Shown: piece after piece, positions 1,475 through 61,368 of the stretch
Layout: each line of letters begins with the position of its first letter
Position numbering within the stretch: position 1 is the first letter of the stretch
Source: Parcubacteria group bacterium ADurb.Bin192
GTDB lineage: Bacteria; Patescibacteriota; Patescibacteriia; 2-12-FULL-60-25
Assembly: GCA_002070095.1 (NCBI GenBank)
Contig: MWCR01000005.1
Coordinates: forward strand, 5,463-69,462
Direction: 5' to 3'
DNA length: 64,000 nt
Notes under the pieces: model-generated
Told to the model about the DNA's origin: nothing
What the model saw: only the letters and a program-made list of their open reading frames with translations
Databases searched by the model: none
Position numbers and translations under genes: made by a program

Positions 1475-1476
1475 AT

Positions 1477-2166: not shown

Positions 2167-2169
2167 AAC

Positions 2170-3300: not shown

Positions 3301-3305
3301 CCCTA

Positions 3306-5833: not shown

Positions 5834-5842
5834 AACCAATAA

Positions 5843-8400: not shown

Positions 8401-8440
8401 ATCGCTTAATAATAATTAACAAACATCGATTCGTCTATGT

Positions 8441-10792: not shown

Positions 10793-10796
10793 AAAC

Positions 10797-13446: not shown

Positions 13447-13447
13447 A

Positions 13448-14146: not shown

Positions 14147-14149
14147 ACT

Positions 14150-17009: not shown

Positions 17010-17011
17010 AA

Positions 17012-18634: not shown

Positions 18635-18713
18635 GAGGTCATGATATTTTAAAAAGCGTGTTATGTAAAGAGTAAAAAAGTAGTAAATTTTTAAAATATG
18701 TCTTATATCAACT

Positions 18714-27552: not shown

Positions 27553-29937
27553 TCACCTCCTCGGTCCCTTATACTCACCTTCAGTTGTAGTAACCGTATT
27601 AGTCACTGCGGGCGGAGTCACGGCCGGTGTGGCACTGGCAGTCGACATTTCCAGGGACTGCTCTATGGTAGTCGCTCTGCCGTCGATTAAAGGTTGTAAT
27701 TGAGCTTTGGATTTGGGATCCATTTGCACCACGGCTCCCAAAATCAAATTTCTTTCTTCCATCAAACCATGCGTTTCCATAATTTGAGCAATCTGCAGAT
27801 AAGTGGCGGCCGGAGCAGCCGGCAAGGTAGGCAAAATTTCAATCAGTGATTTTAACCCGTCTTTATCCCCTTTCAGACCATAAGCTTGAGCCACCATCAT
27901 AGCATCTTGCGCGCCGCGCATAATATACGGCCGGCTGACGCGCATGGACTTAATAAGGCTGTCCGCGCCGTTTTCAATGTCCCTGACGTCATACCATTGG
28001 CTGATACCCAAATACCACCAAGCTTCTCCAATTTCTTCGTCAAAAGACACAGCCCGCCTGAATTGCTCCACAGCTTCTTGCGGCCGGCCCATTTCGGTCA
28101 GCAGACGGCCGTAGCTGAAAAATAATTGCTGGCGCTTGGGACTTTCTTTAATGGCTTCCAAAAACTGATCCTCGGCCTGCTTTTGGATGTCCGGATCTTT
28201 AACCGCGCGCCCCACAGACTGCAGTAAATTGGCGTAGATAAAACGCGGATGCGCGTTGATGCCGTGCGTCACCAAATGCCTGTCCGATACTTCCCGGGCC
28301 AGATCAAACATGGCGCGCCACTCTGGCCATTGAGTTAAACGTCCGCTGTCCGCCAAACTGATTAAATTTCTGGAATGCAAGAAAGTCTGTTCATCCAGAT
28401 AAGGCGTCTGAATGGCGGCCGCTTTTTTGGAATAATTCAACCATTCGCTTAAATTGCCGGCTCCAAAATAAGTATTGCCCTTGATGACCAAATAAGAAGC
28501 ATAAGCCGGCATAACCGAAGTCAACCAAATAAGCAAGATAAACACGGCCTGCAATAAACCGTAAGCCACCCAAGGCACGGGGTTGGTGGGGGCCGGCTTC
28601 TCATCTTTAACCTGAAGTTCTTCTTTGCCCGCGAACACCGGAAACCCGATGCAAATGACCAGCGCGTACAACAGATAGCTCATACTGAAAGCCGCCGGGT
28701 GATCGAACACAAAAATATTTTGCAAAAAATAACCGGCCGGCAAGCCCATGAGCACGGCCGTAGTGGGAATATCTATGTGCTTTTTGAGGCGGGCCTTGAT
28801 AATGGTGACATACAACATGATCCACAGGCCCAAAAAAGTCACAAAACCCACAATGCCCGTCATGCTGAACACATCCATGACCGTGTTATGCGCGCGGTCA
28901 AACCAAGTTTCATAATAGCCGGCCCGCAAAGACTCGGGATTGTACTTGCGGTTAAACAGGATGTGAAAATCATCCAAACCCCAGCCCGTGAGCGGGCGCT
29001 CTAAAAATCCTTGCCAGGCGATGTCCCAGGCAATAAAGCGCCCGGCCGTGCCCGTCTGCAAAGAAAAGATGCGGCTGGCCGTGGGAAAAGATTTGGCAAA
29101 AGATTCAAAGGCCGGGGTTTTGACGCCCACGGTCACTATACCGATATACAAAAAGGCGCAGGCCAAAATCGCGCCGATAATGCCAATCCTGATTTTTTTG
29201 CTGTGATGCAATAAACCGACCGTGGCGGCCGAGATGACCATGGCAAAAATCAGGCCCATAAACGGACCGCGCGAACCGGCCGCGAACAAAGCGGTTAATG
29301 AGGTGATAAAAGCGATCACATACCAAGTTTTCCAGCCGTTGCTTTTGGTTTTAAACCATAAGAGCGCGATAAAAAACAAAATAAACAACTGATAGGCCCC
29401 TGAATAAATCGGATTATCCAGCAACCCGCCCACGCGCGGACCGGCCGGGAACATCAACAATTTGGGGAAAGGTTTTTGCAATAAAGCCACGCAAGCCATG
29501 AACACGCCCAAGATAATTTGATAATTCAACAAGGTTTTCCATTGATCCCAGGTTTTGATGAGCGAGGTGGTCATGGTCAGCCACATCAGAAAATGCAGCA
29601 GTGTAAACAAACCGTTCATGCGCTCCTGATTGCCCCACCAGGCCCGGATAGGATCCACCGCGAAGATGACGGACAACAGCAAAGCTACAAAATACGCGCC
29701 TATGGCCAAATACAGATAAGACCAGCGGGGCCGATATTTGGGTTCGATCCAGGCCAAGACCGCGTAAGCCGGAAAGGTCAGACCGATCAGAATTTGAAAA
29801 AAAATCAGCTTGGAAAAGACAAAAGGAAAAATAACTACGGGTACGAACATGAGAGGCATGAGCAGGCCTCCGTAGATGCCTCCATAAACAATGGTTTTGA
29901 GTATTTTAATGGCGGTTTGACGTTGCATATGCCCCAT
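27553..29937 (-). CDS. O-antigen ligase/polymerase-like (Wzy_C-type) membrane protein with C-terminal TPR repeats
   Basis: Polytopic, with AAGSRGPFMGLIFAMV and PLTGWGLDDFHILFNR. C-terminus TPR-like (EAIKESPKRQQLFFSYGRLLTEMGRPQEAVEQFRRAVSFDEEIGEAWWYLG). I prefer the ATG at 29937 or 29928, because the track N-terminus (..FAKASGGFGLDE) is repeat-derived. Confidence 0.7.
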   Translation of the reverse strand: MGHMQRQTAIKILKTIVYGGIYGGLLMPLMFVPVVIFPFVFSKLIFFQILIGLTFPAYAVLAWIEPKYRPRWSYLYLAIGAYFVALLLSVIFAVDPIRAWWGNQERMNGLFTLLHFLMWLTMTTSLIKTWDQWKTLLNYQIILGVFMACVALLQKPFPKLLMFPAGPRVGGLLDNPIYSGAYQLFILFFIALLWFKTKSNGWKTWYVIAFITSLTALFAAGSRGPFMGLIFAMVISAATVGLLHHSKKIRIGIIGAILACAFLYIGIVTVGVKTPAFESFAKSFPTASRIFSLQTGTAGRFIAWDIAWQGFLERPLTGWGLDDFHILFNRKYNPESLRAGYYETWFDRAHNTVMDVFSMTGIVGFVTFLGLWIMLYVTIIKARLKKHIDIPTTAVLMGLPAGYFLQNIFVFDHPAAFSMSYLLYALVICIGFPVFAGKEELQVKDEKPAPTNPVPWVAYGLLQAVFILLIWLTSVMPAYASYLVIKGNTYFGAGNLSEWLNYSKKAAAIQTPYLDEQTFLHSRNLISLADSGRLTQWPEWRAMFDLAREVSDRHLVTHGINAHPRFIYANLLQSVGRAVKDPDIQKQAEDQFLEAIKESPKRQQLFFSYGRLLTEMGRPQEAVEQFRRAVSFDEEIGEAWWYLGISQWYDVRDIENGADSLIKSMRVSRPYIMRGAQDAMMVAQAYGLKGDKDGLKSLIEILPTLPAAPAATYLQIAQIMETHGLMEERNLILGAVVQMDPKSKAQLQPLIDGRATTIEQSLEMSTASATPAVTPPAVTNTVTTTEGEYKGPRR

Positions 29938-30195
29938 AGAATAGCACAAACGCTCATCCAAACCAAAACCCCCCGAAGCTTTAGCGAAGGGGGGTTGGCA
30001 CCGGACCATGGGTCCGATGATTTAACCTTGATATTTCAAGATTAGCTTTCAGTCCAAAGGCACGAAGCTTTTGGAGATTGCTCCAGACTAATCCGGAGCA
30101 CCGAACGTCCGATTCTTTCTTCAGCCCATCCCCTCTCCCCATGCGGGGAGAGGGGCGCTTTCAGCCAAAGCCGAAAGCCGGGTCTGAAGTCCGAA

Positions 30196-33100
30196 TTAGT
30201 TGCTCACTGAAGAGGTCTGAGTCAGATCCTCGACTAACAAGTCATTTGTCCAGTCGAATGAAGTCTGATCAGCTGACGAGTGGTTGATTTCCGAGTTATC
30301 GGACCACAGGAAGGTACCCAAGTAATCAGCCGTGCCATCCGGGGCGCCATTAACGGCACCTGTATCCAAGTTCCAAACATTGGCATTGGACACAAAGGTT
30401 GTACCGCCGGAAGTCACAGGTGAGCTGTTCTTGAGGTACGCGCGAGCCACAACCGTCGGGGTCGGATCGCGGAAGAACGACGTGGTTACGTTGTTGCCCG
30501 AACCGGAGGTTGAGCTGACCGTCGCGCGCAGCGAGTAGGTGTTGCCCGAACCGGCGATTGAGCTCTCTTGCGAGTTGGAGGTCGTAAAGGCTACGGCAAC
30601 TCTAACTGAAGAGGTGGCGGCCGGAACGCCGGTGGTCTTTAAGTCCGCACCGGTTTCCGCATTGTAAACAGTGTAGTCAGCAGCCGTGATCTCTGAAGCG
30701 TTGCGGTACACCTTGAAGCCGCTCAAAGACACATTGGCTGATTTGGATACATTGAAGACAATCTGTTTCAGGGCAACAGTGCCGGCTGAATCAGCGCCGA
30801 TCTGCACGCGGTACAGTTCTTGTTCACTGCCCGAGTTGAAGACCGTGTTGGTCAAGCTCTGTCTGGTAACAACCGGTTTGCTCTTGCGGAGCACCATGTT
30901 GTTAGCATCCAAGTCGCCTGAAGTGAAGTAAACACGTTCGCCGGAAGCGGCACCCGTGGTGCGGATGTTGATCTTGCCGGTGTAGTTGGCGTCCCAATCA
31001 CCAGTGGTGGTGACGGTGCTGACCAAACCTAAGCCCGGTTGATGACCCGTGCGGGTCACGCCGGTCAAAGCTCCGTTAACAGTGGAAGAAGCTTCGATGT
31101 TGCTCATCTTAGCCCACAATTCAAAGGAGGCACTGCCATCCTTGGGAACCGTGATTTCACTGCCTGTGAGTTGAACGTCTTTTTCACCCGTGGCACCGGA
31201 CTCAAATTGAGCCGTACCCTTAACATCGCCGTTTTGAGCGATGGCTACCATGCGGAAGTTGGCGTTGTCGCCACCAGCCAAGGAGTGGACGCGAACCAAA
31301 TCAATGTTCATGTCCTCGAATTGAGCCGTTACCTTATATTTGGCAAACGGTACCCAAACGTCCTTTTCCAAACCGCGGGCAATCACGATGGCTTGAGCCG
31401 GATGACCTTCAGCCGCAACCGTGATGGAACCGGAGTTCAAAATCACATGATAAACCGAAGGCGTGGTGCCAAATTGTTGGCCCGCCGCTGTTCCGGTTAA
31501 TTTAGCGTCGATGGTCGGAGTGATGGTATTAGCATCCTCGTCTTGAGCTGTTACACCATTGGTCGAAGCCAAGCCCACAGCCAGTTTGTCCTGGTGAGTG
31601 GTGGAGGCGGCCGAACTCAAGGTGGCCTTGACCGTCAAATTCTTGGTCGTGCCCTTGGCAATCTTGAGGTTCATGTTGGTGATGGAAGCTTCACCCGTTT
31701 TGGTGTCAGGCACGCGAGCCAAACCGACTTGCGTGTCACCGTCCCAAACGGACAATGAAGTCACACGCTCGTCGCAGTTGACCAAAGCGTTATCTGAACC
31801 GAAATCATCAGCACCGATATCGGCCTGACATTTCAGCAACAAGTTGGTGATGGTCACATCTGATTGTGAACCGGCAGTTAAGGTAAGACCGGTGACGGGC
31901 TTATCTTGAGCCTTTTTCACCAAAGTGCCGGAATACGGGGTGGAAGACAAACCAACTTCCAAGCTGGAAGCTTTGACAGTCATGTTGTTACCGTTGGTAA
32001 CAGCATTCGGCACGATCTTGGTGGTGATATCCAAGTTCTCGCCAGTGTCAACTATCTTGACATCGCCCAACTCAAAACGCTGGAAGATACCGCGATATTG
32101 TTTGTCGATGTACAAAGCGTCATCCGAGTTGGCCAAGTCAGCGACTAAAGCCAAGTCCATGGTCTCGCCGGCCTTGATGTTGAAGGTCTCGTTGAACACG
32201 AGGTCTTGCAACGTGGTATTGCCGGAGGTCGAGAGTTCCTTAGGACCGACCAAAGTCTTATCATTGGCCAAGTTGACTACTTTGAGGTTGCGGAAGAACA
32301 AGGTTGAACCGTTGTACAATTGACCGCTGACAGCCTGCAATTGCATGCGCAAGTTGCGGATTTCCAAATCATTGTCAGGTGAGGTGAGCGAGAACTTGTA
32401 CAGAACTGTGCCCAATCTGCCCTTGGCAATGTTGGAAGCTGCCGGACCATTGTACGCAAAGGTCAATTGACCGCCTTGCGTGGTAACTTCGATGTAGTTG
32501 GAACCCGAGTTGTCGAAGTTGGCGATGGTCACAGCCGCGCCTGAATTGTAAACAGTGTCAACCGCGTAGATGTCCGTGGCATATTCCACATAGGTGCGGA
32601 TCTTGCGTCCGGCGCGTCCGGCCACATCGGCGCGGAGCGAGAACACGCGGGTTACACCATTGGGAAGCAGATACGGGGTGTCGAAATTCAACACGATTTG
32701 ACCCTTGGAGCTAACCGCGGCGGACGAAGCCACCTTGGTTGTGCCTTGATATAAGGCGAAGTTCTTGAGATCAGCGTTGTTGATGTCGCCGCCTTGGTAC
32801 AAGGTTACGCGATGAATGCGCAAATCATTGGTGCTGGCCGTGAGCTTGAAGCTGGAAATTTCAGCATCCTTGGCGCCAATGTTCGGGTTGGCGGGTTGAG
32901 GACCCTTTTGGATGTCAACCGCGCCGGCCAAAGCCGTACCCTTGACAAACACGTTGCCGCGGACCGGGAAAGAACCGCTGACCGTGCCCGTGCCGGAAAG
33001 CACTACACTGGCCGCGTCACCCAATTCGAAAGCATGGTTGCCTCCGGTATCACCAGCTGAATTAAAATCAGCATAGATGTAATAGGACTTGGTGGTGTTG

Positions 33101-34098
33101 GCCGGAATGGAGATGTTCAAAGAATTGAACTCAACCTTGTTGGTGGTGGCGTTGACCGAGCGGCCCGTGGTTAAACGGTTGCCGGCTGAATCATACAAGT
33201 AGACGTTGGCGAAATCCGACGTCACACCCACACCCACGCGATGGAAGTGCAAACCACTTACATTGGCGCCGGTGCTGCCAGCGGTTAAGTTGACTTTGAT
33301 CATCGGAACTGACATGGCGTTCTTAGGCACCGTGGCGCCGGCTGGCGTATCGGAAGCCAAAGAAACAGTCACATCACCGCCTACAACCGGGGCGGCGCCG
33401 CCGCAAGCCACTGTCCAGAAATTATCCGGTTCAGCGGTCGTAACGTCCGTGCCGTTGGTGTAAGCGATTTCGGTCATGACCATGTTGGTCATGTTCCATT
33501 TGTTGGCCGCAAAAGCCGCATCACCCGCGATCTTGCGCTTCAAACCATCCCAGACAACATACTTTTCAGTGTCGCCGGAATAAGAAATCAGCTGACCGTT
33601 CGGATGAACGTTGCTGGCAATGGAAGCGCCCACCGTGTAGTCGCCGAAATAAGCATCCGGCACGTCCACGACGCGCGTGTTCCAAGCATCACCGTAAAGG
33701 GCCTTGGCAATGGCTTCGGATTCGATCCAGTGCAAAGTACCGCATTTGGTGACCGCATAAGTCTGGGGATCCGTGGTGATTTTGACCAGGTTGGTACCCG
33801 GGCGCATGGTCACGTTCTTTCCAAGAGAGATGGCTGCGAGTTCTGCATCCGTAATGGTCTTAACGGATGAGAAATCTGAGAACCATGAGAAAAAGGTTTT
33901 CTCGTTCGGGAATACATAGCGCATTCCGTCGTTGGCGTAAAAGTAAACAGCCGGGCCGGAGGCCTTGATCAAATCGCCGGCATTAAGCGTGGCGGCTTGA
34001 GCTGTTACCGGGAAAGCCAAAGCACCGACGCCCACGGAACCAAAAATGGTTACAAAAGCGACGAATGAAGAGAAAGCTTTCTTTAAGTAATTACCCAT
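30196..34098 (-). CDS. large secreted surface protein (1300 aa, beta-rich repetitive)
   Basis: Signal peptide MGNYLKKAFSSFVAFVTIFGSVGVGALAFPVTAQA|A. Thr/Ser/Asn/Gly/Val-rich with repeated ~130-aa segments. No enzymatic motif recognised. Confidence 0.8.
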   Translation of the reverse strand: MGNYLKKAFSSFVAFVTIFGSVGVGALAFPVTAQAATLNAGDLIKASGPAVYFYANDGMRYVFPNEKTFFSWFSDFSSVKTITDAELAAISLGKNVTMRPGTNLVKITTDPQTYAVTKCGTLHWIESEAIAKALYGDAWNTRVVDVPDAYFGDYTVGASIASNVHPNGQLISYSGDTEKYVVWDGLKRKIAGDAAFAANKWNMTNMVMTEIAYTNGTDVTTAEPDNFWTVACGGAAPVVGGDVTVSLASDTPAGATVPKNAMSVPMIKVNLTAGSTGANVSGLHFHRVGVGVTSDFANVYLYDSAGNRLTTGRSVNATTNKVEFNSLNISIPANTTKSYYIYADFNSAGDTGGNHAFELGDAASVVLSGTGTVSGSFPVRGNVFVKGTALAGAVDIQKGPQPANPNIGAKDAEISSFKLTASTNDLRIHRVTLYQGGDINNADLKNFALYQGTTKVASSAAVSSKGQIVLNFDTPYLLPNGVTRVFSLRADVAGRAGRKIRTYVEYATDIYAVDTVYNSGAAVTIANFDNSGSNYIEVTTQGGQLTFAYNGPAASNIAKGRLGTVLYKFSLTSPDNDLEIRNLRMQLQAVSGQLYNGSTLFFRNLKVVNLANDKTLVGPKELSTSGNTTLQDLVFNETFNIKAGETMDLALVADLANSDDALYIDKQYRGIFQRFELGDVKIVDTGENLDITTKIVPNAVTNGNNMTVKASSLEVGLSSTPYSGTLVKKAQDKPVTGLTLTAGSQSDVTITNLLLKCQADIGADDFGSDNALVNCDERVTSLSVWDGDTQVGLARVPDTKTGEASITNMNLKIAKGTTKNLTVKATLSSAASTTHQDKLAVGLASTNGVTAQDEDANTITPTIDAKLTGTAAGQQFGTTPSVYHVILNSGSITVAAEGHPAQAIVIARGLEKDVWVPFAKYKVTAQFEDMNIDLVRVHSLAGGDNANFRMVAIAQNGDVKGTAQFESGATGEKDVQLTGSEITVPKDGSASFELWAKMSNIEASSTVNGALTGVTRTGHQPGLGLVSTVTTTGDWDANYTGKINIRTTGAASGERVYFTSGDLDANNMVLRKSKPVVTRQSLTNTVFNSGSEQELYRVQIGADSAGTVALKQIVFNVSKSANVSLSGFKVYRNASEITAADYTVYNAETGADLKTTGVPAATSSVRVAVAFTTSNSQESSIAGSGNTYSLRATVSSTSGSGNNVTTSFFRDPTPTVVARAYLKNSSPVTSGGTTFVSNANVWNLDTGAVNGAPDGTADYLGTFLWSDNSEINHSSADQTSFDWTNDLLVEDLTQTSSVSN

Positions 34099-40141: not shown

Positions 40142-41605
40142 TTAAATAAGTGAAGGCGGTTCAAGCTCACGATCCGCATGCCGCAAAATGGAAATACCGG
40201 CCAGCATAATACCCACGGGCAGCCACATGTGAGCCGTCCAATAAGCGGTGTTCAGGAATTGATACAAGATCGCGCCGCCCGCCGAACAGACCAGGGCATA
40301 GGCCGCCAACTGTTTGTTTTTGGGTATGAATTTCAGCGTATGCCTGATCATTTCAACTCCGGCCAGCAATAACCACGCATAGGTCAATATACCCAATAAT
40401 CCGGTTTCTGTCATGAGCTTCTGCCAAAAGCCGTGCGCGTCCAAAGGATCGCCGAATTCTTGAATAAAAACTTGGGCACTGCCCACCCGCCACACATAGG
40501 TTCCGGCCCCGCTGCCGATAATGGGGTGCTCTAAAAAAGCTTGGTAAGCAATGTCGGTCAGCATCCAACGCGTGGAATTGGAACTTTGGGCCACGTGCGA
40601 AAAACTGAATTGAATCTGAATTAAAGCCAAAGGTATCAGCAAGATAATTAAAAACAACAATTCACTGATATATTTTTTGACCATGGGCCGCCAAACCGTG
40701 GCCAGCATAAACACGGCCTGCGCGAAAAACACAATCCAAGCCGTGCGCGCGAAAGTCATCAAAGCCACCAACAGCTGTAACCCGGCCAGGCCGAACAAAA
40801 GACTTTTCCAACGATCTTTCTTGGCCAACACAGCCAAAGCCATGGACAAGGGCCCGGTCATTAAAAGCAGTTCGGCCAATACGTTATGATTTTCCCCGAT
40901 CGGGCTCAAACCGAACAAAGCTATGGGATGCGCCCGCCTCACAAACGAACCGATTGATTCAACACTGGCCAAAGACAATAGTCCGTTCAAAGAGGCCAGC
41001 ACGCCCACCACGGTCAAAATACCCAAAACCGCTTTCAGCCGGCGGCGCGAACGGATCAAGTTAACGGGCATGACCACAAAAGCCACGTAGCAAAACAAAA
41101 CGGGTCGTAAAACAAATTTCAAAACCATCACCGGATCGGGTGCGTACGAACTGAAAACCGATATCAAATGAGCTCCGGTCAAAGCCAAATATGGTTGCCA
41201 CAAAGGCAAGATCGGCTGCCAATTACTGTCCCGCCGCTTATACCAAAGATAAAAAATCTTGATGGCCCAGGCCCCCAGCACAAACAGCAAGATGGTCTCC
41301 CCTAAAAACAAGTCTATGGATCCGCCAAAAGCTCTCTCTCCGAACTTAAGACTGCCGGTGGGAATGGAGACGGTAAAACCCAAAAAAGGCAAGAAAAAAA
41401 TGGCTAAATAAAGCGTAAAATACGTAAAACGCCAGGCGAATAAGATACCGATTAAACATGTGACTAAAAAAAATGGGGCTAAGTTGAGCCCAAAAGCCAC
41501 CAATAAACTGCCTAAAAACAAGACTAAAAATATCACCCAAAACAAACTCCGCCAGTTATTGGAAAGGCTGTTTTTAGCTTTATTTTGGCCATTTTCATCC
41601 TCCAT
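40142..41605 (-). CDS. O-antigen ligase family (Wzy/WaaL-like) membrane protein
   Basis: 487 aa, polytopic. FARTAWIVFFAQAVFML and HPIIGSGAGTYVW are typical of the Wzy_C loop region. Confidence 0.7.
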   Translation of the reverse strand: MEDENGQNKAKNSLSNNWRSLFWVIFLVLFLGSLLVAFGLNLAPFFLVTCLIGILFAWRFTYFTLYLAIFFLPFLGFTVSIPTGSLKFGERAFGGSIDLFLGETILLFVLGAWAIKIFYLWYKRRDSNWQPILPLWQPYLALTGAHLISVFSSYAPDPVMVLKFVLRPVLFCYVAFVVMPVNLIRSRRRLKAVLGILTVVGVLASLNGLLSLASVESIGSFVRRAHPIALFGLSPIGENHNVLAELLLMTGPLSMALAVLAKKDRWKSLLFGLAGLQLLVALMTFARTAWIVFFAQAVFMLATVWRPMVKKYISELLFLIILLIPLALIQIQFSFSHVAQSSNSTRWMLTDIAYQAFLEHPIIGSGAGTYVWRVGSAQVFIQEFGDPLDAHGFWQKLMTETGLLGILTYAWLLLAGVEMIRHTLKFIPKNKQLAAYALVCSAGGAILYQFLNTAYWTAHMWLPVGIMLAGISILRHADRELEPPSLI

Positions 41606-41777
41606 TGACGGTCATTATATCATATCCATATTATATCCGCGTTACAGGTTCTGAATGCTTAAGGCTGAACAACTCTGCTCAAGCACCCGCGGGGCTTGAC
41701 AAAAACCCAATTTTAGCCTTAAGTGTCAACACATTTCGTACCTCGACATCGAGGACAACAACGAGGAGGAGCCCATC

Positions 41778-43364
41778 ATGGGAACGAACCGAATGAAGAT
41801 GGTCAAGGCAGTGAGCTTGCTCGGAAGCGTTGGCGGTGCGGCAGTGCTCGGCGGATTCATGATCCAGACGAGCGCCTGCGGCAACTTGGACACGCTCGAG
41901 CCCACAGGCTCGCAGAAGGAAGCCATCGAGCGCGGCGAGTACGGCTGCACCTGCGAGGAGAACGGGAAGTTCATCCAGACGGACAGCGGCGCGACCGCGG
42001 TCTGCGTGGACCGGCTGGCCGTGGAAGATGTCCTGGCCGCCGCGGCCACCCTGTACAACCCGAATTTCGTGTACAAGAACTGCCCGGAGCTGAACGGTCA
42101 GGATGCTGGCACGGGCGGAACCGGAGGCACGGGCGGGACTGGAGGAATGGGCGGCACCGGAGGCACGGGCGGAGCTGACGCAGGACTTCCCTGCGACGGG
42201 CTGTGCGGTACAGGAACCCACTGCGACCAAGCCACCAACAAGTGCGTGGCTGACGAGCAGGACGCAGGCACCGGAGGCACGGGCGGTACTGGTGGAACAG
42301 GTGGTACCGGAGGCACGGGCGGAGCTGACGCAGGACTTCCCTGCGACGGATTGTGTTCGATCGGAACCAAGTGCGACGAAACCACCAACAAGTGCGTGCC
42401 CAACGACTGCGACGGGCTCTGTTCGACCGGAACCAAGTGCGACCCGGTCACCAACACCTGCGTGCCCGATGGCACCGGTGGAACCGGAGGCACAGGCGGA
42501 ACGACCGTCGACGCCGGACTCCCCTGCGACGGCCTCTGCGGGCCGGGCACCTACTGCGATCCGGTCACGGACAAGTGCCTGCCATCGGAGCCCTGCAACG
42601 GCATGTGCGGACCCGGAACCGTGTGCAACGAGCAGACCAACCTTTGCGAGTACTATCCGCCCGATGGCGGCGTGGGTGGTACGGGCGGAACCGGAGGCAC
42701 AGGCGGAACGGGCGGAACCGGTGGAACCGGAGGCACGGACGCGGGTACGGTCAACGAGTGCCATCCGGGCGAGCTCTGCTCGCTCTACGGCTGGCAGGAG
42801 TGCCACTACTGCCAATCCGGCGGTGTGGAGTACTACTGCCAGGGCGGGATCATGTCCGAAAAGGACGAGGATCTCGGGTGGAACCCCACCTGCTGGAACA
42901 ACACCAGCGGGTGCCCCCAGCTGGGCACGGACAACAAGCTCTCCATCATCGTCCAGACGGGTGAGAACCCGCCCCTCGGCGAGGCGCTCGCCACCTACTC
43001 CAGAGTCGAATACCCGCTCGACACGGACGAGACGTGGTACGTGAACCACGGCGCGGTCAACGTCAGCCAGATGGCGGCCGTGCTCAAGGACGTGGACGGC
43101 GACGACGCCGTCTACGCCAAGGACGCGGTGATCACGTTCACCGTGGGCTTCGCGCCCACCACGGACAACAACGTCATGGGCTGGGACCTGCGTTGCGGGC
43201 AGACCGGCGGCTGCGACGCGACGGACAAGTACATCCTGTGCGACGGCAAGAAGAACACTCCTCTAGCGGTCTTCGAAGACGGAGCGTTCACCACCGGCGG
43301 CACGTACTGCTTCGACAACTACCCCGATGATTGGGGGCTGAACGTCCGCTGCACGCTCCCCTAG
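41778..43364 (+). CDS. secreted cysteine-rich repeat protein, probable lipoprotein (high-GC gene A)
   Basis: GGAGG lies 8-9 nt before the ATG. Signal and lipobox-like sequence ..GGFMIQTSAC. At least 5 units of C-x3-C-x2-GT-x-C-x5-6-C (CDGLCGTGTHCDQATNKC) separated by GTGGTGGTGG linkers, then a unique ~200-aa C-terminal domain. Confidence 0.8.
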   Translation: MGTNRMKMVKAVSLLGSVGGAAVLGGFMIQTSACGNLDTLEPTGSQKEAIERGEYGCTCEENGKFIQTDSGATAVCVDRLAVEDVLAAAATLYNPNFVYKNCPELNGQDAGTGGTGGTGGTGGMGGTGGTGGADAGLPCDGLCGTGTHCDQATNKCVADEQDAGTGGTGGTGGTGGTGGTGGADAGLPCDGLCSIGTKCDETTNKCVPNDCDGLCSTGTKCDPVTNTCVPDGTGGTGGTGGTTVDAGLPCDGLCGPGTYCDPVTDKCLPSEPCNGMCGPGTVCNEQTNLCEYYPPDGGVGGTGGTGGTGGTGGTGGTGGTDAGTVNECHPGELCSLYGWQECHYCQSGGVEYYCQGGIMSEKDEDLGWNPTCWNNTSGCPQLGTDNKLSIIVQTGENPPLGEALATYSRVEYPLDTDETWYVNHGAVNVSQMAAVLKDVDGDDAVYAKDAVITFTVGFAPTTDNNVMGWDLRCGQTGGCDATDKYILCDGKKNTPLAVFEDGAFTTGGTYCFDNYPDDWGLNVRCTLP

Positions 43365-43383
43365 TCCTCGACAACCTCAACAC

Positions 43384-43405
43384 GGGGTGCTCACGTGAGC
43401 ACCCC
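43384..43405 (+). terminator. 22-nt perfect GC-rich palindrome downstream of gene A (possible terminator hairpin, no T-run)
   Basis: ggggtgctcac|gtgagcacccc, 20 nt after the stop codon. Confidence 0.35.
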
Positions 43406-43794
43406 GCTCAACCTCTAGGCCCCTGTATCGATCGCATTCTCGCGACTCGGTGCAGGCGGCCTATTATTTTTGTATAAACTGCCGATGCCTTTATTAACAA
43501 AGCCGTAATCCTATAAACTCTTCGTCATCCTGACTTCCGGTTGTCATCCTGAACCTCCAGTCGTCATCCTGACCACCAAATCGTCATCCTGAACTTGTTT
43601 CAGGATCTCTGAACTCAATAACCACTGTTATTCAGTATGATTAGGAGTTAGATCCTGAACTGAATTCAGGATGACAGAAGGAGAAACAGGATAATAGGAG
43701 TGAGATGCTGAACTGAATTCAGCATGACGGAAGAAGGAATCAGCCCCCAATCGTCATCACACGCCACCCACGGTCATCCCGAACTCCCAAATCG

Positions 43795-44109
43795 TCATCC
43801 TGAACTTGTTTCAGGATCTCCAACCAATCCACCAAACAAATCTTCAAAACAAGGATTGTCTTTTAAGACTAAATTAATCTTCCAATCTCTGTGCCATCTT
43901 TTCAGTTGTTTTTCTCTTTCAATGGCCACGATAGGACTATTGGCGATTTCATAATAAACCAATTTAGTAATGTTATATTTCTTGGTGAAACCTTGGACTA
44001 AACCTCTTTTATGTTCGTCTACCCTTCTCAACAAATCATTAGTTACCCCGATATAAAATACGGTATTGACTGAATTAGTCATGATGTAAACATACATGTT
44101 TTTTGGCAT
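43795..44109 (-). CDS. GIY-YIG nuclease family protein (URI domain, UPF0213-like), copy 1
   Basis: YVYIMTNSVNTVFYIGVTNDLLRRVDEH...EREKQLKRWHRDWKINLV..NPCFEDL. The last residues DPETSSG and the stop are encoded by the hairpin gatcctgaaacaagttcaggatga. Confidence 0.85.
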   Translation of the reverse strand: MPKNMYVYIMTNSVNTVFYIGVTNDLLRRVDEHKRGLVQGFTKKYNITKLVYYEIANSPIVAIEREKQLKRWHRDWKINLVLKDNPCFEDLFGGLVGDPETSSG

Positions 44110-44490
44110 GATAAAAGTATAACAGATTATGATGCTGATGGTGATTTGGTGAAGAGATCCTGAAACAAGTTCAGGATGACGAAAGGAGAAACAGGATAAT
44201 AGGAGTGAGATGCTGAACTGAATTCAGCATGACGGAAGAATAAATCTAACCCCCTATCGTCATCACATGCCACCCACGGTCATCCTGAACTTGTTTCAGG
44301 ATCTCTAAACTCAATAACCACTGTTATTCAGTATGATTAGGAGTTAGATCCTGAACTGAATTCAGGATGACAGAAGGAGAAACAGGATAATAGGAGTGAG
44401 ATGCTGAACTGAATTCAGCATGACGGAAGAAGGAATCAGCCCCCAATCGTCATCACACGCCACCCACGGTCATCCCGAACTCCCAAATCG

Positions 44491-44805
44491 TCATCCTGAA
44501 CTTGTTTCAGGATCTCCAACCAATCCACCAAACAAATCTTCAAAACAAGGATTGTCTTTTAAGACTAAATTAATCTTCCAATCTCTGTGCCATCTTTTCA
44601 GTTGTTTTTCTCTTTCAATGGCCACGATAGGACTATTGGCGATTTCATAATAAACCAATTTAGTAATGTTATATTTCTTGGTGAAACCTTGGACTAAACC
44701 TCTTTTATGTTCGTCTACCCTTCTCAACAAATCATTAGTTACCCCGATATAAAATACGGTATTGACTGAATTAGTCATGATGTAAACATACATGTTTTTT
44801 GGCAT
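44491..44805 (-). CDS. GIY-YIG nuclease family protein, copy 2 (identical)
   Basis: Identical 104-aa translation, 696 bp from copy 1. Confidence 0.85.
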   Translation of the reverse strand: MPKNMYVYIMTNSVNTVFYIGVTNDLLRRVDEHKRGLVQGFTKKYNITKLVYYEIANSPIVAIEREKQLKRWHRDWKINLVLKDNPCFEDLFGGLVGDPETSSG

Positions 44806-45029
44806 GATAAAAGTATAACAGATTATGATGCTGATGGTGATTTGGTGAAGAGATCCTGAAACAAGTTCAGGATGACGAAAGGAGAAACAGGATAATAGGA
44901 GTGAGATGCTGAACCCCCACTATGTCTTACGACTTCGAGGGGCACGTAAATTCAGCATGACGGAAGAAGCAGGATGGCTGATAGGTTCAGGATGACGAAA
45001 TAGCTTAGCGTAACAATTTGGTTGTTCCT

Positions 45030-45066
45030 ATAAAAAAATAGAGGCGGCTTGTAGTAAGCCGCCTCG
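45030..45066 (-). terminator. intrinsic terminator for gene B (minus strand)
   Basis: The minus strand reads gaggcggctt-actac-aagccgcctc followed by tattttttta. 10-bp GC-rich stem plus T-run. Confidence 0.7.
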
Positions 45067-45175
45067 AGTCACCTCCTTGTCCCGCAATACCGCGGGACGT
45101 TTGAGTTGAGTTCAACTGCGCGATTGTCCCCCATCCCTACGCAGGACGCGGGACGTGCGACGAGCGACGTGGACC

Positions 45176-47065
45176 CTATTGGTTGTAAGGATCCCACACC
45201 CGCCGGCAACCCTCGCTGTAGGGGTTGGTCGGCAAAGTCACGGCGACTGGCTGGCTGGTGGACGTCTCGCCGTACACGTTGTACTGGGGCGAGCAGACCC
45301 CGTTGACCTGTCGGCAGTCGTAGCACATGCCTTGATAGCAAGCGCCAACCGTGCCCGTGTACTCCACGAGGAACTTGACCGGCATCTGACTGGGGGGCAA
45401 AAGTGCCGTGACCCAGCCGCCTTCGGCCGAGCTGTACGTCATGGGAACGGTCTTGTCCCAATCCGTGACGTGGACGTCTGACCCGATGCCAGAGGGCGCG
45501 TCCATGATGATGCGAACCTTCTTGAGGTCGCCCTTGTAGCAATCGTTGTCGATGCCGTCCTCCACGACTTCGACGTTGCCCGGGCGACGCAGGTAATCTG
45601 CATCATTGCAGTCCGTGCCCACCAACGATCCGTCGCCATCCGCGTCGTTGGCCGAGGTTTCAGCCCACTTGGCGGTGAAGTAGAGATCGCATCCGCCGTC
45701 GTTGTTGGTGTGGAGCTTAGCCTCGGGCCAGGCCGCATGCTTCTTCTGGCCGTCCTTGGTCACCCAGCACTCGTACTTGAGCGCCGGAGCCAAAGGATCG
45801 GACGTGCAGCCCGAGTTTTTCCAGAAGTTCCCAGGCTCAGGATTCACGGCCGTGTTGATCTTGATGTAAGATCCCCATTCGGACGTGAACGTGATGTGCT
45901 GAGTCACGGCCGTGGCGGTGTACGGTTGACCGTTTGCGCCCCACTGCTCCCAGTCGGTGAGCAAGTGGTAGTAGCCATTGGCCCCGTCAGGAATCCCCTC
46001 GTCCGAGATGTACGTGTAGTACTTCGCGGACTGGTTATCCGGGTGAGTGATTTGACACTCGACCGTGACGGGCTGGGCTTGAACGCCCGAGTCACTGCCG
46101 CCCGTGCCAGCCGTACCGCCAGAACCACCAGCTCCCGAGCTTCCGCCCGTGCCGCCCGTTCCGGCGTCGACCGTGTCGAGGACGCAAACACCAGCTTCGC
46201 AGTGGGTGTCGGTCCCGCACATGTTGTTGCAGGGGTCGGCCGCATCTGCGTCGGTTCCGGTGTCAGCATCCATGCCGGCATCCTGCTCGTCGAGCTTGCA
46301 GGTCCCCGACTGCTCATCGCAGTGGGTGCCTTCGCCGCACATGCCGTTGCAGGGGTCGGTGTTGGCATCCGTGCCGGCGTCGCTGCCAGCCGAACCACCG
46401 GTACCCGCATCGGCTTCGTTGAGCTTGCAGGTTCCGGTCGCCTCGTCGCAGTGGGTTCCTTCGCCACAGTGGTTGCCACAGGAATCGGTGCCGGCGTCGT
46501 TGGTCGTGCCACCCGTACCGGCCGCACCGGCTTCACCGGCGCATCCGGCCGAACCGCCCGTACCCGAGCTTCCGCCAGTGCCGCCAGTCCCCTGCTCGGC
46601 CACGCACTGTCCGTTGATGCAGGACGTGCCCGTGGCGCACTTGCCGCCGCACGGCTCGTCGGCCACACACTGGTCGGTATTGGCGTCGCAGTGCGTGCCC
46701 GTAGCGCAAGCGCCGCCGCAAGGCTCGGTCGTGTTACCACCCGAACCTGCCGTGCCAGCCGAGCCCGCCGTTCCGCTGGCGCCAGAAGATCCGCCCGTGT
46801 TGGACGAACCACCGGAACCAGCGACTCCACCGCTGCCCGAACTTCCGCCGGTGCCAGCCGTGTTGTTGGTGCCGCCGGTACCGCTGGGCGGATTGGTGGT
46901 CGAACCACCCGTTCCGCCTGTGCCACTAGCAACGCACTGCCCGTCGACACACGAGGTGCCAGACGAGCAACGCCCTTCGCAGTCGTTGGCCGGCGGGTTC
47001 GTGGTCATGGTGTTGCCGTACATCGTCACCACAAACAGGACCGCCAACATCTTGATGCTTTTCAT
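45176..47065 (-). CDS. secreted cysteine-rich repeat protein with MopE-like metal-binding motif (high-GC gene B)
   Basis: I prefer the ATG at 47065 (MKSIKMLAVLFVV), preceded by AAGGAGA; the track start is 47155. About 8 Cys units (CGGACATGTHCDANTDQC, CGNHCGEGTHCDEATGTC ...), with GTGG/GSGG linkers. C-terminal domain with DADGDGSLVGTDCNDADYLRRPGNVEVVEDGIDNDC. Confidence 0.8.
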   Translation of the reverse strand: MKSIKMLAVLFVVTMYGNTMTTNPPANDCEGRCSSGTSCVDGQCVASGTGGTGGSTTNPPSGTGGTNNTAGTGGSSGSGGVAGSGGSSNTGGSSGASGTAGSAGTAGSGGNTTEPCGGACATGTHCDANTDQCVADEPCGGKCATGTSCINGQCVAEQGTGGTGGSSGTGGSAGCAGEAGAAGTGGTTNDAGTDSCGNHCGEGTHCDEATGTCKLNEADAGTGGSAGSDAGTDANTDPCNGMCGEGTHCDEQSGTCKLDEQDAGMDADTGTDADAADPCNNMCGTDTHCEAGVCVLDTVDAGTGGTGGSSGAGGSGGTAGTGGSDSGVQAQPVTVECQITHPDNQSAKYYTYISDEGIPDGANGYYHLLTDWEQWGANGQPYTATAVTQHITFTSEWGSYIKINTAVNPEPGNFWKNSGCTSDPLAPALKYECWVTKDGQKKHAAWPEAKLHTNNDGGCDLYFTAKWAETSANDADGDGSLVGTDCNDADYLRRPGNVEVVEDGIDNDCYKGDLKKVRIIMDAPSGIGSDVHVTDWDKTVPMTYSSAEGGWVTALLPPSQMPVKFLVEYTGTVGACYQGMCYDCRQVNGVCSPQYNVYGETSTSQPVAVTLPTNPYSEGCRRVWDPYNQ

Positions 47066-47145
47066 CGGTATCTCCTTGAACTTACGCGGTCTGAACCATC
47101 TTGGCCAGCCGCCTTGTTGCGCTGTTGTTGAGCCGCGAACGGGGG

Positions 47146-47253
47146 CTAAAAGCACCCCAACGAACGGAAGCGAAACACCGCCATTGCAATAAATATCGCT
47201 ACCGCCAAAATCAAAACCATCAACTCAAACCCGCGCAAACCCTTCTGATTCAT
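47146..47253 (-). CDS. possible 35-aa hydrophobic peptide upstream of gene B
   Basis: My translation is MNQKGLRGFELMVLILAVAIFIAMAVFRFRSLGCF, preceded by GGAGGATTTT. Below the ORF-track length cutoff, with no homology evidence. Confidence 0.3.
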   Translation of the reverse strand: MNQKGLRGFELMVLILAVAIFIAMAVFRFRSLGCF

Positions 47254-47394
47254 AAAATCCTCCCAAATATTACGCAGAGCTCCTGATGAGGCACCGCTTG
47301 TTAGTTGAACTCAATTTTCAAGGTGCGCCGTTAAGGTGCACCTTCTCGGGTAACCGGCCTTATCCAGGCGGTTTTCACCCGAAAAGAACCAACA

Positions 47395-47423
47395 AATATA
47401 GCATAAAAAAGCGTTTTTGTCAA
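47395..47423 (-). promoter_or_regulatory. near-consensus sigma70 promoter driving the small ORF / gene B
   Basis: Minus strand: TTGACA (47423-47418), 17-nt spacer, TATATT (47400-47395). Confidence 0.6.
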
Positions 47424-48069: not shown

Positions 48070-48834
48070 TTACTCAGCTTCCGGTGTAGCCGTTTCCCAG
48101 ACAGCTTCAAACATAGCTTTAAGCATGTTGTACATTTCCTGGCTTTCAATCAAAAACACGTAGGGAATATCTTTCATGAAAAAAATAAAAATCTTGCCGT
48201 CCACAAACACCATGTCGCCGGTAAAAGTATATTTATCGTAAGGAATGGTTCTTTTTTGCCACATGTTTTTATCATACGGCGGGTCAGGCATGCCCGGCTT
48301 GATGGCTACGATGGCCCGGCCATGCGCCCGGCTGGTCAAATTCACTCTTTCTTGTTCGTTAACCTTGGACAGTTTAACCGTGCCTTCGTCGCGCGCCACA
48401 AAATTCAAAACCTCACCCTTGGCCTCACCGATCATGGCACGGCAAGTGCTCACGCCTTCCGCACCTTCAAAAAACTTAACCATGGGCTTGCTGCTGCCGG
48501 CCGAATTAAACAAGGCCATAAACAAAGGCAGAGCCTCCTGCAATCTGTTTTCTTTTTCCTGAATAGCTTTTTTCTCTTGATCGGTCAGTTTTTTCAGCAC
48601 ATCCGGGGACTCGGCCACAAACATGGTCTTTTTGCCTTTTTCAAACGTAGCCATCAAACCCCGGCGCTTTAAAGCCTCAATCATAACATAGGTGGTGGCG
48701 CGGTTGACTCCGGCTTTTTTGGCGATATCCTGCACACTGGCCGGCCCCAGTTCCAGCATGGCTAAATAAACCAAAGACTCCTTGTCAGACAAGCCATATT
48801 CAGCTAAACGTTCAATTAATTCTTTCATAACCAT
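48070..48834 (-). CDS. TrmB-family transcriptional regulator
   Basis: N-terminal wHTH LAEYGLSDKESLVYLAMLELGPASVQDIAKKAGVNRATTYVMIEALKRRGLM, followed by a ~170-aa effector-like domain. Confidence 0.75.
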   Translation of the reverse strand: MVMKELIERLAEYGLSDKESLVYLAMLELGPASVQDIAKKAGVNRATTYVMIEALKRRGLMATFEKGKKTMFVAESPDVLKKLTDQEKKAIQEKENRLQEALPLFMALFNSAGSSKPMVKFFEGAEGVSTCRAMIGEAKGEVLNFVARDEGTVKLSKVNEQERVNLTSRAHGRAIVAIKPGMPDPPYDKNMWQKRTIPYDKYTFTGDMVFVDGKIFIFFMKDIPYVFLIESQEMYNMLKAMFEAVWETATPEAE

Positions 48835-60406: not shown

Positions 60407-60419
60407 AAACCATCTTGAT

Positions 60420-60821
60420 TTATTTAAGAGTGGCTTTACCGCCGGCCTCTTCAATTTTCTTTTTAATCTCTTCAGCTTCGGCTTTGGGAGCAGCTTCTTT
60501 GATAACCTTGGGAGCGCCGTCAACCATATCCTTGGCTTCTTTCAAGCCCAAACCGGTCACCTCGCGCACCACTTTGATAACTCCGATCTTGTTGGAGCCG
60601 GCCTCTGTCAACTCAACGTTAAAATCAGATTTCTCTTCAGCGGCCGCGCCGGCGGCTCCGGGAGCGGCCATGGCCATCACCGGGGCCGCGGCACTGACTC
60701 CGAATTTTTCTTCCAAAACTTTAACCAGCTCGGACAGATCCAAAACCGATAATTTTTCAACTTGTTCCACGAGGGCCTTGAACTTCTCCGGCACCTCCAC
60801 GACTTTTTGTTCGTCTGACAT
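60420..60821 (-). CDS. rplL: 50S ribosomal protein L7/L12
   Basis: The ATG at 60821 gives [42 protein letters not shown]. Ala-rich hinge, then C-terminus [26 protein letters not shown]. Confidence 0.95.
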
Positions 60822-60864
60822 ATGTATGCAATACAAATTAAATCACGAATTAATAAGAACTGAT

Positions 60865-61368
60865 TTAGGCGGCAGTCTCAACCGCTTCTTTTTGTTGACG
60901 GATAGCATCCAGCGCTCTGACAAAACCGGAGACCGGACCGTTGATCACGCCCACAAACATGCCATACAACTGTTGCTTGGACGGCAAGGTGGATAAATTA
61001 ACCACATAAGCCTGATCAACCGCTTGTTTGCCGTAAATTCCGCCAACCAATTTAAGGGTTGATTCTTTGGACATATCGCCCAAAATCTTAGCCGGCGCCA
61101 CCTCATCTTCACTGCTGAAAGCCACTCCGATCATGCCGGGCAAAGCCTTGGCATCCAACTCAAGACCCGCTTCTTTAGCCGCCAAATTAATGATGCTCTT
61201 TTTAGCCACCACATAATTCAGATTCTGCTCAAACATCTTTTTGCGCAGAACATCGGCCTTGGACACATTCAAGCCCTGATAGTCCGCAAACACTACCGCC
61301 TGACTGTCTTTAAACAGCCGGACCAATTTATCTTTCGCGTCTGACTTTTGTTGCTTGGTTTTTGCCAT
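60865..61368 (-). CDS. rplJ: 50S ribosomal protein L10
   Basis: 167 aa, immediately upstream of rplL. VVFADYQGLNVSKADVLRKKM is typical of L10. Confidence 0.9.
   Translation of the reverse strand: MAKTKQQKSDAKDKLVRLFKDSQAVVFADYQGLNVSKADVLRKKMFEQNLNYVVAKKSIINLAAKEAGLELDAKALPGMIGVAFSSEDEVAPAKILGDMSKESTLKLVGGIYGKQAVDQAYVVNLSTLPSKQQLYGMFVGVINGPVSGFVRALDAIRQQKEAVETAA

Follow-up and report, generated by a model that had tools for sequence, protein, structure and literature searches.

Monoderm bacteria encode surface-layer (S-layer) and other surface glycoproteins beside the gene clusters for their glycosylation (slg); in Geobacillus stearothermophilus, for instance, the S-layer glycoprotein SgsE goes with WsaB, an O-oligosaccharyltransferase of the Wzy_C type. 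The Wzy_C superfamily includes protein O-oligosaccharyltransferases, and the S-layer glycoprotein of haloarchaea has a Thr-rich, O-glycosylated stalk. Here, we examine a 64,000-nt stretch of contig MWCR01000005.1 from Parcubacteria group bacterium ADurb.Bin192 (the whole stretch is hereafter called the window) and, within it, a convergent pair of genes, A and B, of conspicuously high G+C content. A first-pass annotation of this DNA took the pair for a recent horizontal acquisition. We judge it likely instead that A and B are no foreign island but a pair of cell-surface proteins that is old, restricted to the Patescibacteria and passed on by vertical descent, with a codon usage that selection maintains.

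As in S-layer and slg-type clusters, the exported, Ser/Thr-rich proteins A and B are encoded among glycosyltransferases, a flippase and Wzy_C enzymes in a conserved layout; the locus has the makeup of a glycosylation cluster, with a structural gene beside enzymes of these three kinds. Unlike S-layer glycoproteins, A and B contain no S-layer homology (SLH) domain or known S-layer domain, and have a putative lipobox-cysteine anchor, Cys-knot stalks and novel heads. Their glycosylation is predicted only, and another product of the window, a secreted protein of 1300 amino acids (aa), looks more S-layer-like. Two further systems invite comparison. The MopE motif (PF11617), which is related to thrombospondin type-3 Ca-binding repeats, occurs once in the head of B, embedded between two Patescibacteria-only beta-sandwiches, whereas other phyla share the motif alone. 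Myxococcus Cys-rich repeat proteins (TIGR02232/PF13948) resemble A and B in having tandem small Cys-rich modules in secreted proteins, but the spacing in A and B is C-x3-C-x5-C-x4-6-C, over ~18 residues, and neither model matches the stalks (TIGR02232, no NCBIfam hit at E<=0.1; PF13948, or DUF4215, 8.2 bits versus 27). The Myxococcota-type Cys repeats suggested in the first-pass annotation were not recognized by hidden Markov models. The two genes and their heads are as follows, GC3 being the G+C content of third codon positions.

41778-43364, plus strand: gene A, 528 aa; G+C 0.657, GC3 0.82
42750-43361, plus strand: head domain of A, beta-rich and disulfide-rich, of a very small Patescibacteria-only family
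45176-47065, minus strand: gene B, 629 aa with the ATG at 47065 as start; G+C 0.641, GC3 0.77
45179-46084, minus strand: head of B, modelled as two beta-sandwich domains joined by a MopE/thrombospondin type-3-like D-x-D-G-D-G...DNDC loop (45539-45646)

Synteny, divergence and taxonomic range of the pair

Over loci of ~20 kb, the pair occupies the same syntenic site in each of seven further Patescibacteria genomes for which both flanks were examined; in an eighth, the contig ends inside the locus. Both genes are present in L004, L005, L007, L053, L054 and L055, and L009 shows B only, at a contig end. The conserved order is GT2 – GT2 – DUF4012 – MreB – GT4 – TrmB – (small gene) – B-like – partner – Wzy_C – methyltransferase/GT4 – GT4, where the partner takes the place of A. 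The Wzy_C gene adjoins the partner gene in six of the seven genomes; in L054, its place is taken by an unannotated membrane gene that aligns to the Wzy_C protein of the window.

The jump in G+C reported at both genes is confirmed by per-gene G+C, GC3 and 300-nt windows. Against a mean of 46.3% for the 64-kb window, G+C is 0.657 in A and 0.641 in B, compared with 0.439 in the left flank, 0.488 in the right flank and 0.424 in the A-B spacer. Maxima of 0.69 and 0.72 are reached over A and B, respectively, in 300-nt windows, and the edges of the steps lie no more than ~150 nt from the ends of the two genes. GC3 ranges from 0.29 to 0.64 in the 40 other genes of the window. Relative to the flanking genes (~49% G+C, GC3 0.55), the composition of A and B is thus atypical for the genome (G+C 0.64-0.66 versus 0.49, GC3 0.77-0.82 versus 0.55). 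In the relatives, the G+C of the pair is 60-69% and its GC3 0.70-0.81 (0.70-0.82 with the window included); flanking G+C is 44-50% in L004, 45-52% in L005 and L007, and 51-62% in L053-L055, and flanking GC3 over all these genomes is 0.44-0.81. Orthologues with the same G+C in relatives had been named beforehand as an observation that would speak against recent acquisition, and such orthologues are what we find.

Sequence divergence tells the same story. Between the window and its nearest relative, L004, protein identity is 89-95% for the flanks, 81% for B and 64% for A; between the window and L005 or L007 it is 57-77% for the flanks (96% for MreB) and ~40% for both B and A. Across all relatives, flank identity to the window spans 43-96%, and the identity of A and B declines in step with that of the flanking genes. 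Synonymous divergence (dS) from L004 amounts to 0.69-0.76 for the flanks and to 0.76-1.17 for A and B, so that much of the synonymous sequence has already been replaced, and for L005 and beyond synonymous sites must be saturated. In the comparison with L004, the ratio of nonsynonymous to synonymous divergence (dN/dS) reaches 0.20-0.23 for A and B, which evolve fast, against 0.04-0.09 for the flanks. Despite dS values of at least 0.7, GC3 stays at 0.70-0.82 in all lineages, that is, there is no amelioration toward the host. Of the marks by which genomic islands are recognized, the pair shows atypical composition; absence from relatives, homologues in a donor and amelioration are not seen.

Judged by the homologues that carry a name, both proteins are confined to the Patescibacteria. 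The searches brought up metagenomic proteins only, and all full-length homologues with a name belong to this group; no donor lineage is among them. When one genome per species was scanned with a 5-sequence profile, full-domain relatives of the B head appeared only in Patescibacteria; the scan drew mainly matches to the MopE motif alone, in many phyla, and in Myxococcota, Acidobacteriota and others these covered only query residues ~147-182, the 36-residue motif. The abundance of MopE-like motifs in Myxococcota, cited in the first-pass annotation, thus concerns the motif alone. For the A head, an exhaustive search of representatives found only 10 at E<=1e-3 among 1.84 billion; the other members of this family are small lipoproteins or membrane-anchored proteins, and the two named ones are both from Patescibacteria. 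A word-indexed homologue search with the A head alone as query gave no match. Against Pfam and NCBIfam, full-length A matched no family and full-length B only, weakly, the MopE motif; when stalks, N-terminal domain and heads were compared with Pfam under permissive settings, MopE alone rose above threshold. No description of either protein was found in the literature. The heads of A and B represent two new Patescibacteria-only protein families within a familiar kind, namely stalked, Cys-rich surface lipoproteins encoded in a glycosylation locus.

Codon usage and rival explanations

Complete explanation of the G+C excess by amino-acid content was among the ideas to be checked. With the codon usage of the flanks, the amino acids of A and B would give G+C of 0.559 and 0.567, compared with 0.657 and 0.641 observed and a background of 0.488; amino-acid content accordingly accounts for 0.07-0.08 of an excess of 0.15-0.17, or ~40-50%. 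The remainder is due to synonymous codon choice, with GC3 of 0.82 (A) and 0.77 (B) against 0.56 expected. GC3 peaks, at 0.92, in the non-repetitive head of A and drops to its lowest values, 0.71-0.73, where the stalks are rich in linkers; the repeats are therefore not responsible for high GC3. The codon preferences are pronounced, as the following fractions illustrate.

AAG (Lys): 0.94 in A and B, 0.29 in the background
AAC (Asn): 0.90 in A and B, 0.39 in the background
TAC (Tyr): 0.95 in A and B, 0.31 in the background
ATC (Ile): 0.95 in A and B, 0.42 in the background
CTC (Leu): 0.48 in A and B, 0.07 in the background

This codon dialect, as we will call it, is conserved. Codon fractions of the pair in the window correlate with those of the pairs in L005, L007, L054 and L055 at r of 0.89-0.96, compared with 0.19 for the window's own background and 0.56-0.72 for the backgrounds of GC-rich relatives. 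Leu is CTC at fractions of 0.41-0.59 in the pairs, versus 0.07-0.13 in four of five backgrounds (0.37 in L054), and Lys is AAG at 0.88-1.0, versus 0.28-0.63 in the backgrounds, those of GC-rich relatives included. The GC-rich backgrounds of L053 and L055 encode Leu mostly as TTG, and that of L055 also favors AAA for Lys.

It is a general rule, due to Grosjean and Fiers, that weak (A/U-rich) codons prefer a strong third base. We classed codons by positions 1 and 2 (S for G/C, W for A/T) and expressed the third-position G+C of the heads, relative to flanking genes, as a logit shift. In the window, this shift is +0.76 for SS, +1.51 for WS and +3.20 for WW codons, and the order SS < WS < WW recurs in six of seven genomes (window, L004, L005, L007, L053 and L055). 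A uniform pressure, such as donor G+C or biased gene conversion, would be expected to act on all classes to much the same degree. The dependence on codon class therefore speaks for selection, and, together with the sharp boundaries at the gene edges and the conserved choice of CTC over CTG, it leads us to infer that the dialect is maintained by selection on the codons or mRNA of A and B, and not by donor composition. The likeness to the codon bias of highly expressed genes and to the Grosjean-Fiers rule is that, in A and B, the preference for G/C in the third position rises with A/T at positions 1 and 2 and is gene-specific and conserved; the differences are that rplJ and rplL do not take part, and that the magnitude in A and B is unusual, with GC3 0.25 above background.

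How far the dialect extends can be gauged from an A/B-versus-background codon likelihood score, in which the 1300-aa secreted protein ranks third and L12 fifth. In the 1300-aa protein, 72% of WW codons end in G/C, versus 42% in the background, a weaker form of the dialect. We raise, as a possibility that we hold to be less likely than not, that the clade keeps by selection a private codon dialect in a few envelope genes (A, B and, more weakly, the 1300-aa gene), in which A/T-rich codons almost always end in G/C, Leu is CTC and Lys is AAG, and which is absent from ribosomal protein genes and outlasts both synonymous saturation and shifts of genome G+C from ~45 to 60%. The likeliest reason for such a dialect, though a speculative one, would be that a cell with few ribosomes expresses its envelope proteins very strongly or under special regulation; in ultra-small cells, the envelope proteins made may far outnumber the ribosomal proteins. 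If so, the dialect would mark a distinct expression regime of the dominant surface proteins, through mRNA stabilization, dedicated tRNA use or co-translational export, and could serve as a sequence-only tag for such proteins in uncultured genomes of the candidate phyla radiation (CPR).

Recent acquisition from a high-GC donor, be it a Myxococcota-type bacterium or the host of an episymbiont, followed by too little amelioration, would fit the strongly atypical composition and codon usage, the presence of a nuclease cassette between A and B, and the MopE motif, which is common in Myxococcota. It is very improbable, however, given that orthologues of the same G+C stand at the same site in seven other Patescibacteria genomes, between flanks 43-96% identical to those of the window, and that GC3 has not been lowered despite dS of 0.7-1.2 to the nearest relative. 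In addition, no full-length homologue outside the Patescibacteria was found, the Myxococcus repeat models remain unmatched, the third-position shift varies with codon class, unlike donor composition, and the nuclease cassette is missing from the equally GC-high L004 and L007. An assembly chimera, in which GC-rich fragments of another organism were joined into the contig, would produce sharp G+C steps at four junctions such as we see. Breaks at the junctions were to be looked for on this account, but contig alignment shows three other assemblies, from different samples, to be 99.3-99.97% identical to the window across all four; protein A is identical on contigs of ENA ERZ27257428, NCBI GCA_022705785.1 and ENA ERZ795059. 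Because the same junctions occur in these independent assemblies, the contig is not chimeric at the pair, and the syntenic loci of distant relatives, on contigs that include some of 0.6-1.2 Mb, leave this explanation with practically no probability. Nor is it at all probable that long antisense or overlapping genes force high GC3 on A and B. The first-pass annotation had described every frame as open, and shadow open reading frames (ORFs) of 98-473 aa are indeed present in the alternative frames; the frames nevertheless contain 1-22 stops each, and nine of ten are no more open than synonymous-codon shuffles predict, so that the shadow ORFs are a by-product of codon usage. The exception, frame +2 of B (12 stops versus 22 expected, P=0.003), is one marginal result in ten tests and therefore weak, and the translations are mainly low-complexity strings of P, A, R and V. 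We rejected the idea of overlapping genes on the strength of this shuffle test.

Two further explanations look elsewhere for the origin of the high G+C. The pair may have been acquired by the ancestor of the clade, or GC-rich alleles may have been imported repeatedly, in situ, from GC-richer Patescibacteria. The G+C of the pair (63-69%) is near that of the flanks of the GC-richest relatives (55-60%), no other gene of the locus evolves as fast as A and B, whose dS lies slightly above that of the flanks, the type of stalk module switches between lineages while being common to A and B within a genome, and the N-terminus of B has been replaced in the window. We nonetheless regard this scenario as unlikely, since the CTC and AAG choices of the pair differ from the background even in GC-rich relatives, the ordering of identities is congruent with that of the flanks, single-nucleotide polymorphisms (SNPs) are absent from A and B among near-identical strains, and no close allele is found in GC-rich relatives, where identity of the B head is at most 28%. 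GC-biased gene conversion at a recombination hot spot, driven by breaks made by the GIY-YIG nuclease or by exchange between the inverted stalks, draws on the inverted similarity between the two stalks (58 nt at 71%, 48 nt at 77%), on the cassette between the genes and on the general bias toward G/C-ending codons. It is difficult to reconcile with a spacer of 42% G+C and a return to background no more than ~150 nt from the gene ends, with a GC3 peak in the non-repeat head of A and not in the shared stalk, with the high G+C of L004 and L007, which have no nuclease, and with the codon-class dependence and the conserved choice of CTC over CTG; we consider it distinctly improbable.

Some observations weigh against an old surface-protein pair with selected codons. 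The background of the relatives is that of flanking genes and not of whole genomes, and the SS < WS < WW pattern is flat in L054. The genes rplJ (167 aa) and rplL (133 aa; together 60420-61368, minus strand) have GC3 of 0.55-0.56 and background codons (r 0.14 with the A/B shift); translational selection would thus bypass genes that are usually highly expressed, which weakens that idea. The lipobox of A (T-S-A-C) is non-canonical, and the lipobox cysteine is missing from B of this window. Finally, neither head has a structural or sequence relative with an assigned function.

If the pair is, as we favor, native and old, it is a tempting false positive: a sharp island of G+C and codon usage, with a nuclease in its middle, that is an old, syntenic and lineage-specific locus. 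Composition-based island callers would misassign the pair in all clade members of low G+C. What is unusual is a codon dialect, conserved and gene-specific, that makes a native locus resemble foreign DNA.

Architecture of A and B and a possible arrangement at the cell surface

The architecture ascribed to both proteins in the first-pass annotation (signal peptide, linkers, four-Cys modules and head) is borne out, with five units in A and six in B. In A, a signal peptide with Cys34 (..QTSAC) precedes an N-terminal Cys domain spanning aa 35-105; the stalk covers aa 106-324 and the head aa 325-528. The stalk of A has five C-x3-C-x5-C-x6-C units with four (GTG)n linkers between them. B comprises a signal peptide, a stalk (aa 29-327) of six C-x3-C-x5-C-x4/6-C units with G/S/T/A linkers, and a head (aa 328-629). 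That the C-terminal domains are unrelated is likewise upheld by profile-profile alignment of the heads (hhalign probability 0.4%). Within a genome, A and B have the same type of stalk Cys module, and this type switches between lineages; B-family stalks have 4-Cys mini-modules in the lineage of the window, ~45-residue 6-Cys modules elsewhere and MopE repeats in P0018 and P0019. The common module type suggests exchange between A and B stalks.

AlphaFold2 models of the heads have pLDDT 83.8 and pTM 0.71 for A, and pLDDT 87.8 and pTM 0.80 for B (17 sequences). Foldseek comparison with the PDB found no fold match for the A head (best E 0.049) and no match for the B head (best E 0.013). Faint C2/PLAT-like Foldseek matches of the heads (E 0.01-0.1, template modelling score below 0.3) were not used, and PDB sequence searches matched only artificial Gly-Ser linkers. 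The MopE-like motif noted in B, DADGDG..DC..PG..GIDNDC, is present; against a PF11617 gathering cutoff of 27 bits, the head alone scores 28.4 and clears the threshold, and the full protein scores 25.9. Residues D147, D149, G150, D151, G152, D158, C159, E172 and C182 of the motif are invariant in 17 B homologues.

The N-termini carry export signals. In A orthologues, the Cys after the signal peptide is conserved. B orthologues have canonical lipoprotein signals (..LGC/SGAKKF, ..MGC/AAKKF, ..ACS/GSKKF), and the lipobox is canonical in B of L001, L002 and L004 and in all B homologues. In the window, the corresponding segment of B (46982-47065, minus strand) is without the lipobox cysteine and 29 residues shorter than in L001 and L002: the other assemblies read MKSIKMLAVLFVVTTFGC/SGAKKF... 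(..VVTTFGCSGAKKFEMDEC..), the window ...VVTMYGNTMTTNPP. Either the anchor has truly been lost in this variant of B, or the assemblies merely differ here. A 659-aa, GTG-start ORF of B that reaches 47155 is probably an over-extension.

Upstream of B lies a fragment of a third gene.

47146-47253, minus strand: 35-aa ORF (MNQKGLRGFELMVLILAVAIF...), matching the N-terminus of the 144-aa P0021 from a relative

This ORF is what is left of a third paralogue, membrane-anchored, whose gene has stayed intact ahead of the B-like genes in L005 and L007 (252/255 aa) and in L053 (164 aa), where it encodes a membrane-anchored copy of the head domain of the partner. Distant relatives vary on this theme. In L053 (11765-14356) and L054 (11626-13335), the partner gene is co-directional with the B-like gene and has a different head domain, the L053 partner having a long run of thrombospondin type-3-like, Asp-rich repeats; the small upstream gene again copies the head of the partner, such that the triad layout is kept and the head domain swapped.

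Signal peptides, the lipobox Cys of orthologues, the stalk-plus-head build and the setting in an envelope-glycan locus all agree with the earlier proposal of surface proteins that are exported and membrane-anchored. A and B would be held at the cytoplasmic membrane by a lipid-modified N-terminal cysteine; for B of this strain, an uncleaved or signal peptidase I-type signal might provide the anchor. Stalks of 200-300 residues, in which flexible Gly/Thr/Ser linkers alternate with small four-cysteine knots, would extend outward across the wall and present a beta-sandwich head at the tip, that of B with a putative MopE loop of the Ca2+/metal type. Because the genes lie in the core of the envelope locus and the Wzy_C gene is conserved next to A, the Thr/Ser-rich linkers would be likely substrates of the neighboring glycosylation enzymes. 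The heads may contact what lies outside, be it the wall, an S-layer, a host cell or a phage. Expression-linked selection would maintain the codon dialect. Located in the conserved envelope locus and evolving 3-5x faster than their neighbors, the heads, for which fold models are confident, are reasonable candidates for host- or phage-facing molecules of episymbionts.

Regulatory signals, spacer cassette and the wider locus

Transcription and translation signals around the pair include the following.

41605-41634, plus strand: promoter-like site of A, TTGACG-18-TATTAT, 10/12 consensus match only, ~145 nt upstream
41763-41771, plus strand: Shine-Dalgarno sequence of A, GAGGAGGAG
43416-43476, plus strand: terminator of A, hairpin plus T-run, -15.3 kcal/mol, z -4.5; conserved in L004
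45041-45065, minus strand: intrinsic terminator of B, 10-bp stem plus T-run, -12 kcal/mol, z -6.9
47395-47423, minus strand: promoter-like site of B, TTGACA-17-TGnTATATT, 11/12, with extended TG

The good Shine-Dalgarno sequences reported for both genes stand, that of B being AAGGAG. The near-consensus sigma70 promoters are a more qualified matter: the two sites match the consensus well, but they lie ~145 nt upstream of A and 330 nt upstream of B, the latter ahead of the 35-aa remnant ORF.

Between the two terminators sits a cassette that recalls small stand-alone GIY-YIG proteins (YhbQ/COG2827-like) associated with hairpin repeats.

43520-45000, no strand assigned: mobile-looking cassette, a tandem 696-bp duplication, G+C ~0.34-0.45
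43795-44109, minus strand: GIY-YIG nuclease-domain gene, copy 1; PF01541 63.6 bits versus 22.6, 77/78 profile positions
44491-44805, minus strand: GIY-YIG nuclease-domain gene, copy 2; protein identical to copy 1
45138-45172, plus strand: GACGNNN heptamer array directly 3′ of the B stop; does not fold

Each 696-bp unit has one 104-aa GIY-YIG gene and clusters of 8-bp-stem hairpins (GTCATCCTGAA..TTCAGGATGAC), which within the window are confined to 43.5-45.0 kb. The resemblance to stand-alone GIY-YIG systems lies in the 104-aa domain protein (63.6 bits), its 3′ end running into a hairpin, the multiple hairpin copies, the variation in copy number and the intergenic position. As a difference, the protein is no group I intron endonuclease (22.3 versus 56 bits for TIGR01453), its mobility and nuclease activity are putative, and it has no relation to the G+C of A and B. 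The GIY-YIG gene stands alone between genes, and Rfam detected no intron; over the whole window, neither the Rfam nor the tRNA scan gave a hit. There are two copies of the cassette in the window and L002, one in L001, and none in L004 and L007. The cassette sits in the gap between the convergent terminators as a separate, putatively selfish or unstable insertion; it cannot account for the composition of A and B, because L004 and L007, which do not have it, keep the same high G+C. The hairpin sequence linked to the GIY-YIG gene varies by genome (GTCATCCTGAA.. in the window, GTCATTGCGAG.. in L005, 12040-12660), L004 has hairpin remnants without a GIY-YIG gene (6330-6590), and one hairpin encodes the end of the GIY-YIG protein (DPETSSG).

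The whole 64-kb window is an envelope-glycan locus. It encodes more than 12 glycosyltransferases, about ten methyltransferases, two AsnB-type amidotransferases, a flippase, a pyruvyl transferase, an epimerase, two Wzy_C proteins, MreB and DUF4012. The DUF4012 family is enriched in CPR and Gram-positive bacteria, and a Bifidobacterium member lies in an exopolysaccharide gene cluster (PMC6744442). The conserved neighbors of the pair on its two sides are listed here.

40142-41605, minus strand: Wzy_C-family membrane protein (O-antigen ligase/O-oligosaccharyltransferase superfamily), PF04932 43 bits, neighbor of A
48070-48834, minus strand: TrmB-family regulator, conserved neighbor on the B side

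A comparison of the Wzy_C neighbor of A with the PDB found no relative. A second, larger Wzy_C-family protein (818 aa; 27553-30009, minus strand) is encoded immediately downstream of the 1300-aa gene, paralleling the Wzy_C gene beside A. The 1300-aa protein itself (30196-34098, minus strand) has a signal peptide, is nearly Cys-free and rich in Thr, Ser, Asn and Val, and matches nothing in Pfam; it looks like an S-layer-type subunit. The near-identical assemblies differ at three places, namely the GIY-YIG copy number, a hypervariable stretch of the 1300-aa gene and the N-terminus of B. Of the 97 differences that separate the window from L001 and L003, some 80 lie within 1.4 kb of the 1300-aa gene (31775-33150), and SNPs among these assemblies cluster in this gene, with no enrichment in A or B. 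The 1300-aa gene is the strain-variable surface gene of the locus.

Elsewhere in the window, a low-GC sub-island (1400-19700; 32-37% G+C, GC3 0.29-0.40) lies in this locus of 49% G+C and contains methyltransferase, glycosyltransferase, AsnB, flippase and pyruvyl-transferase genes. This sub-island resembles an exchangeable cassette of glycan variants, for which horizontal replacement is more plausible than for A and B. On the plus strand, a 193-aa ORF at 60415-60996 is a shadow of rplL/rplJ.

The GACGNNN module described beside the stop of B is real and is one of 11 such arrays in the window, where the pattern has 28 hits versus 0.15 expected. The arrays lie at 15842, 20258, 21067, 21506, 21746, 21785, 25750, 26721, 36999, 45138 and 50462, and have 3-5 heptamers each. 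Three lie directly 3′ of stops (minus-strand GT4a, B and mreB). Several are in frame within ORFs, as in the AsnB gene (15105-17015) and the double-GT4 gene (19723-22209), where they add peptides such as RPTSRV and GTSDERR; this behavior is reminiscent of the Rickettsia palindromic elements, which insert into genes. The GACGNNN unit also resembles part of the CCACGTCGCTC hairpin repeats of relatives.

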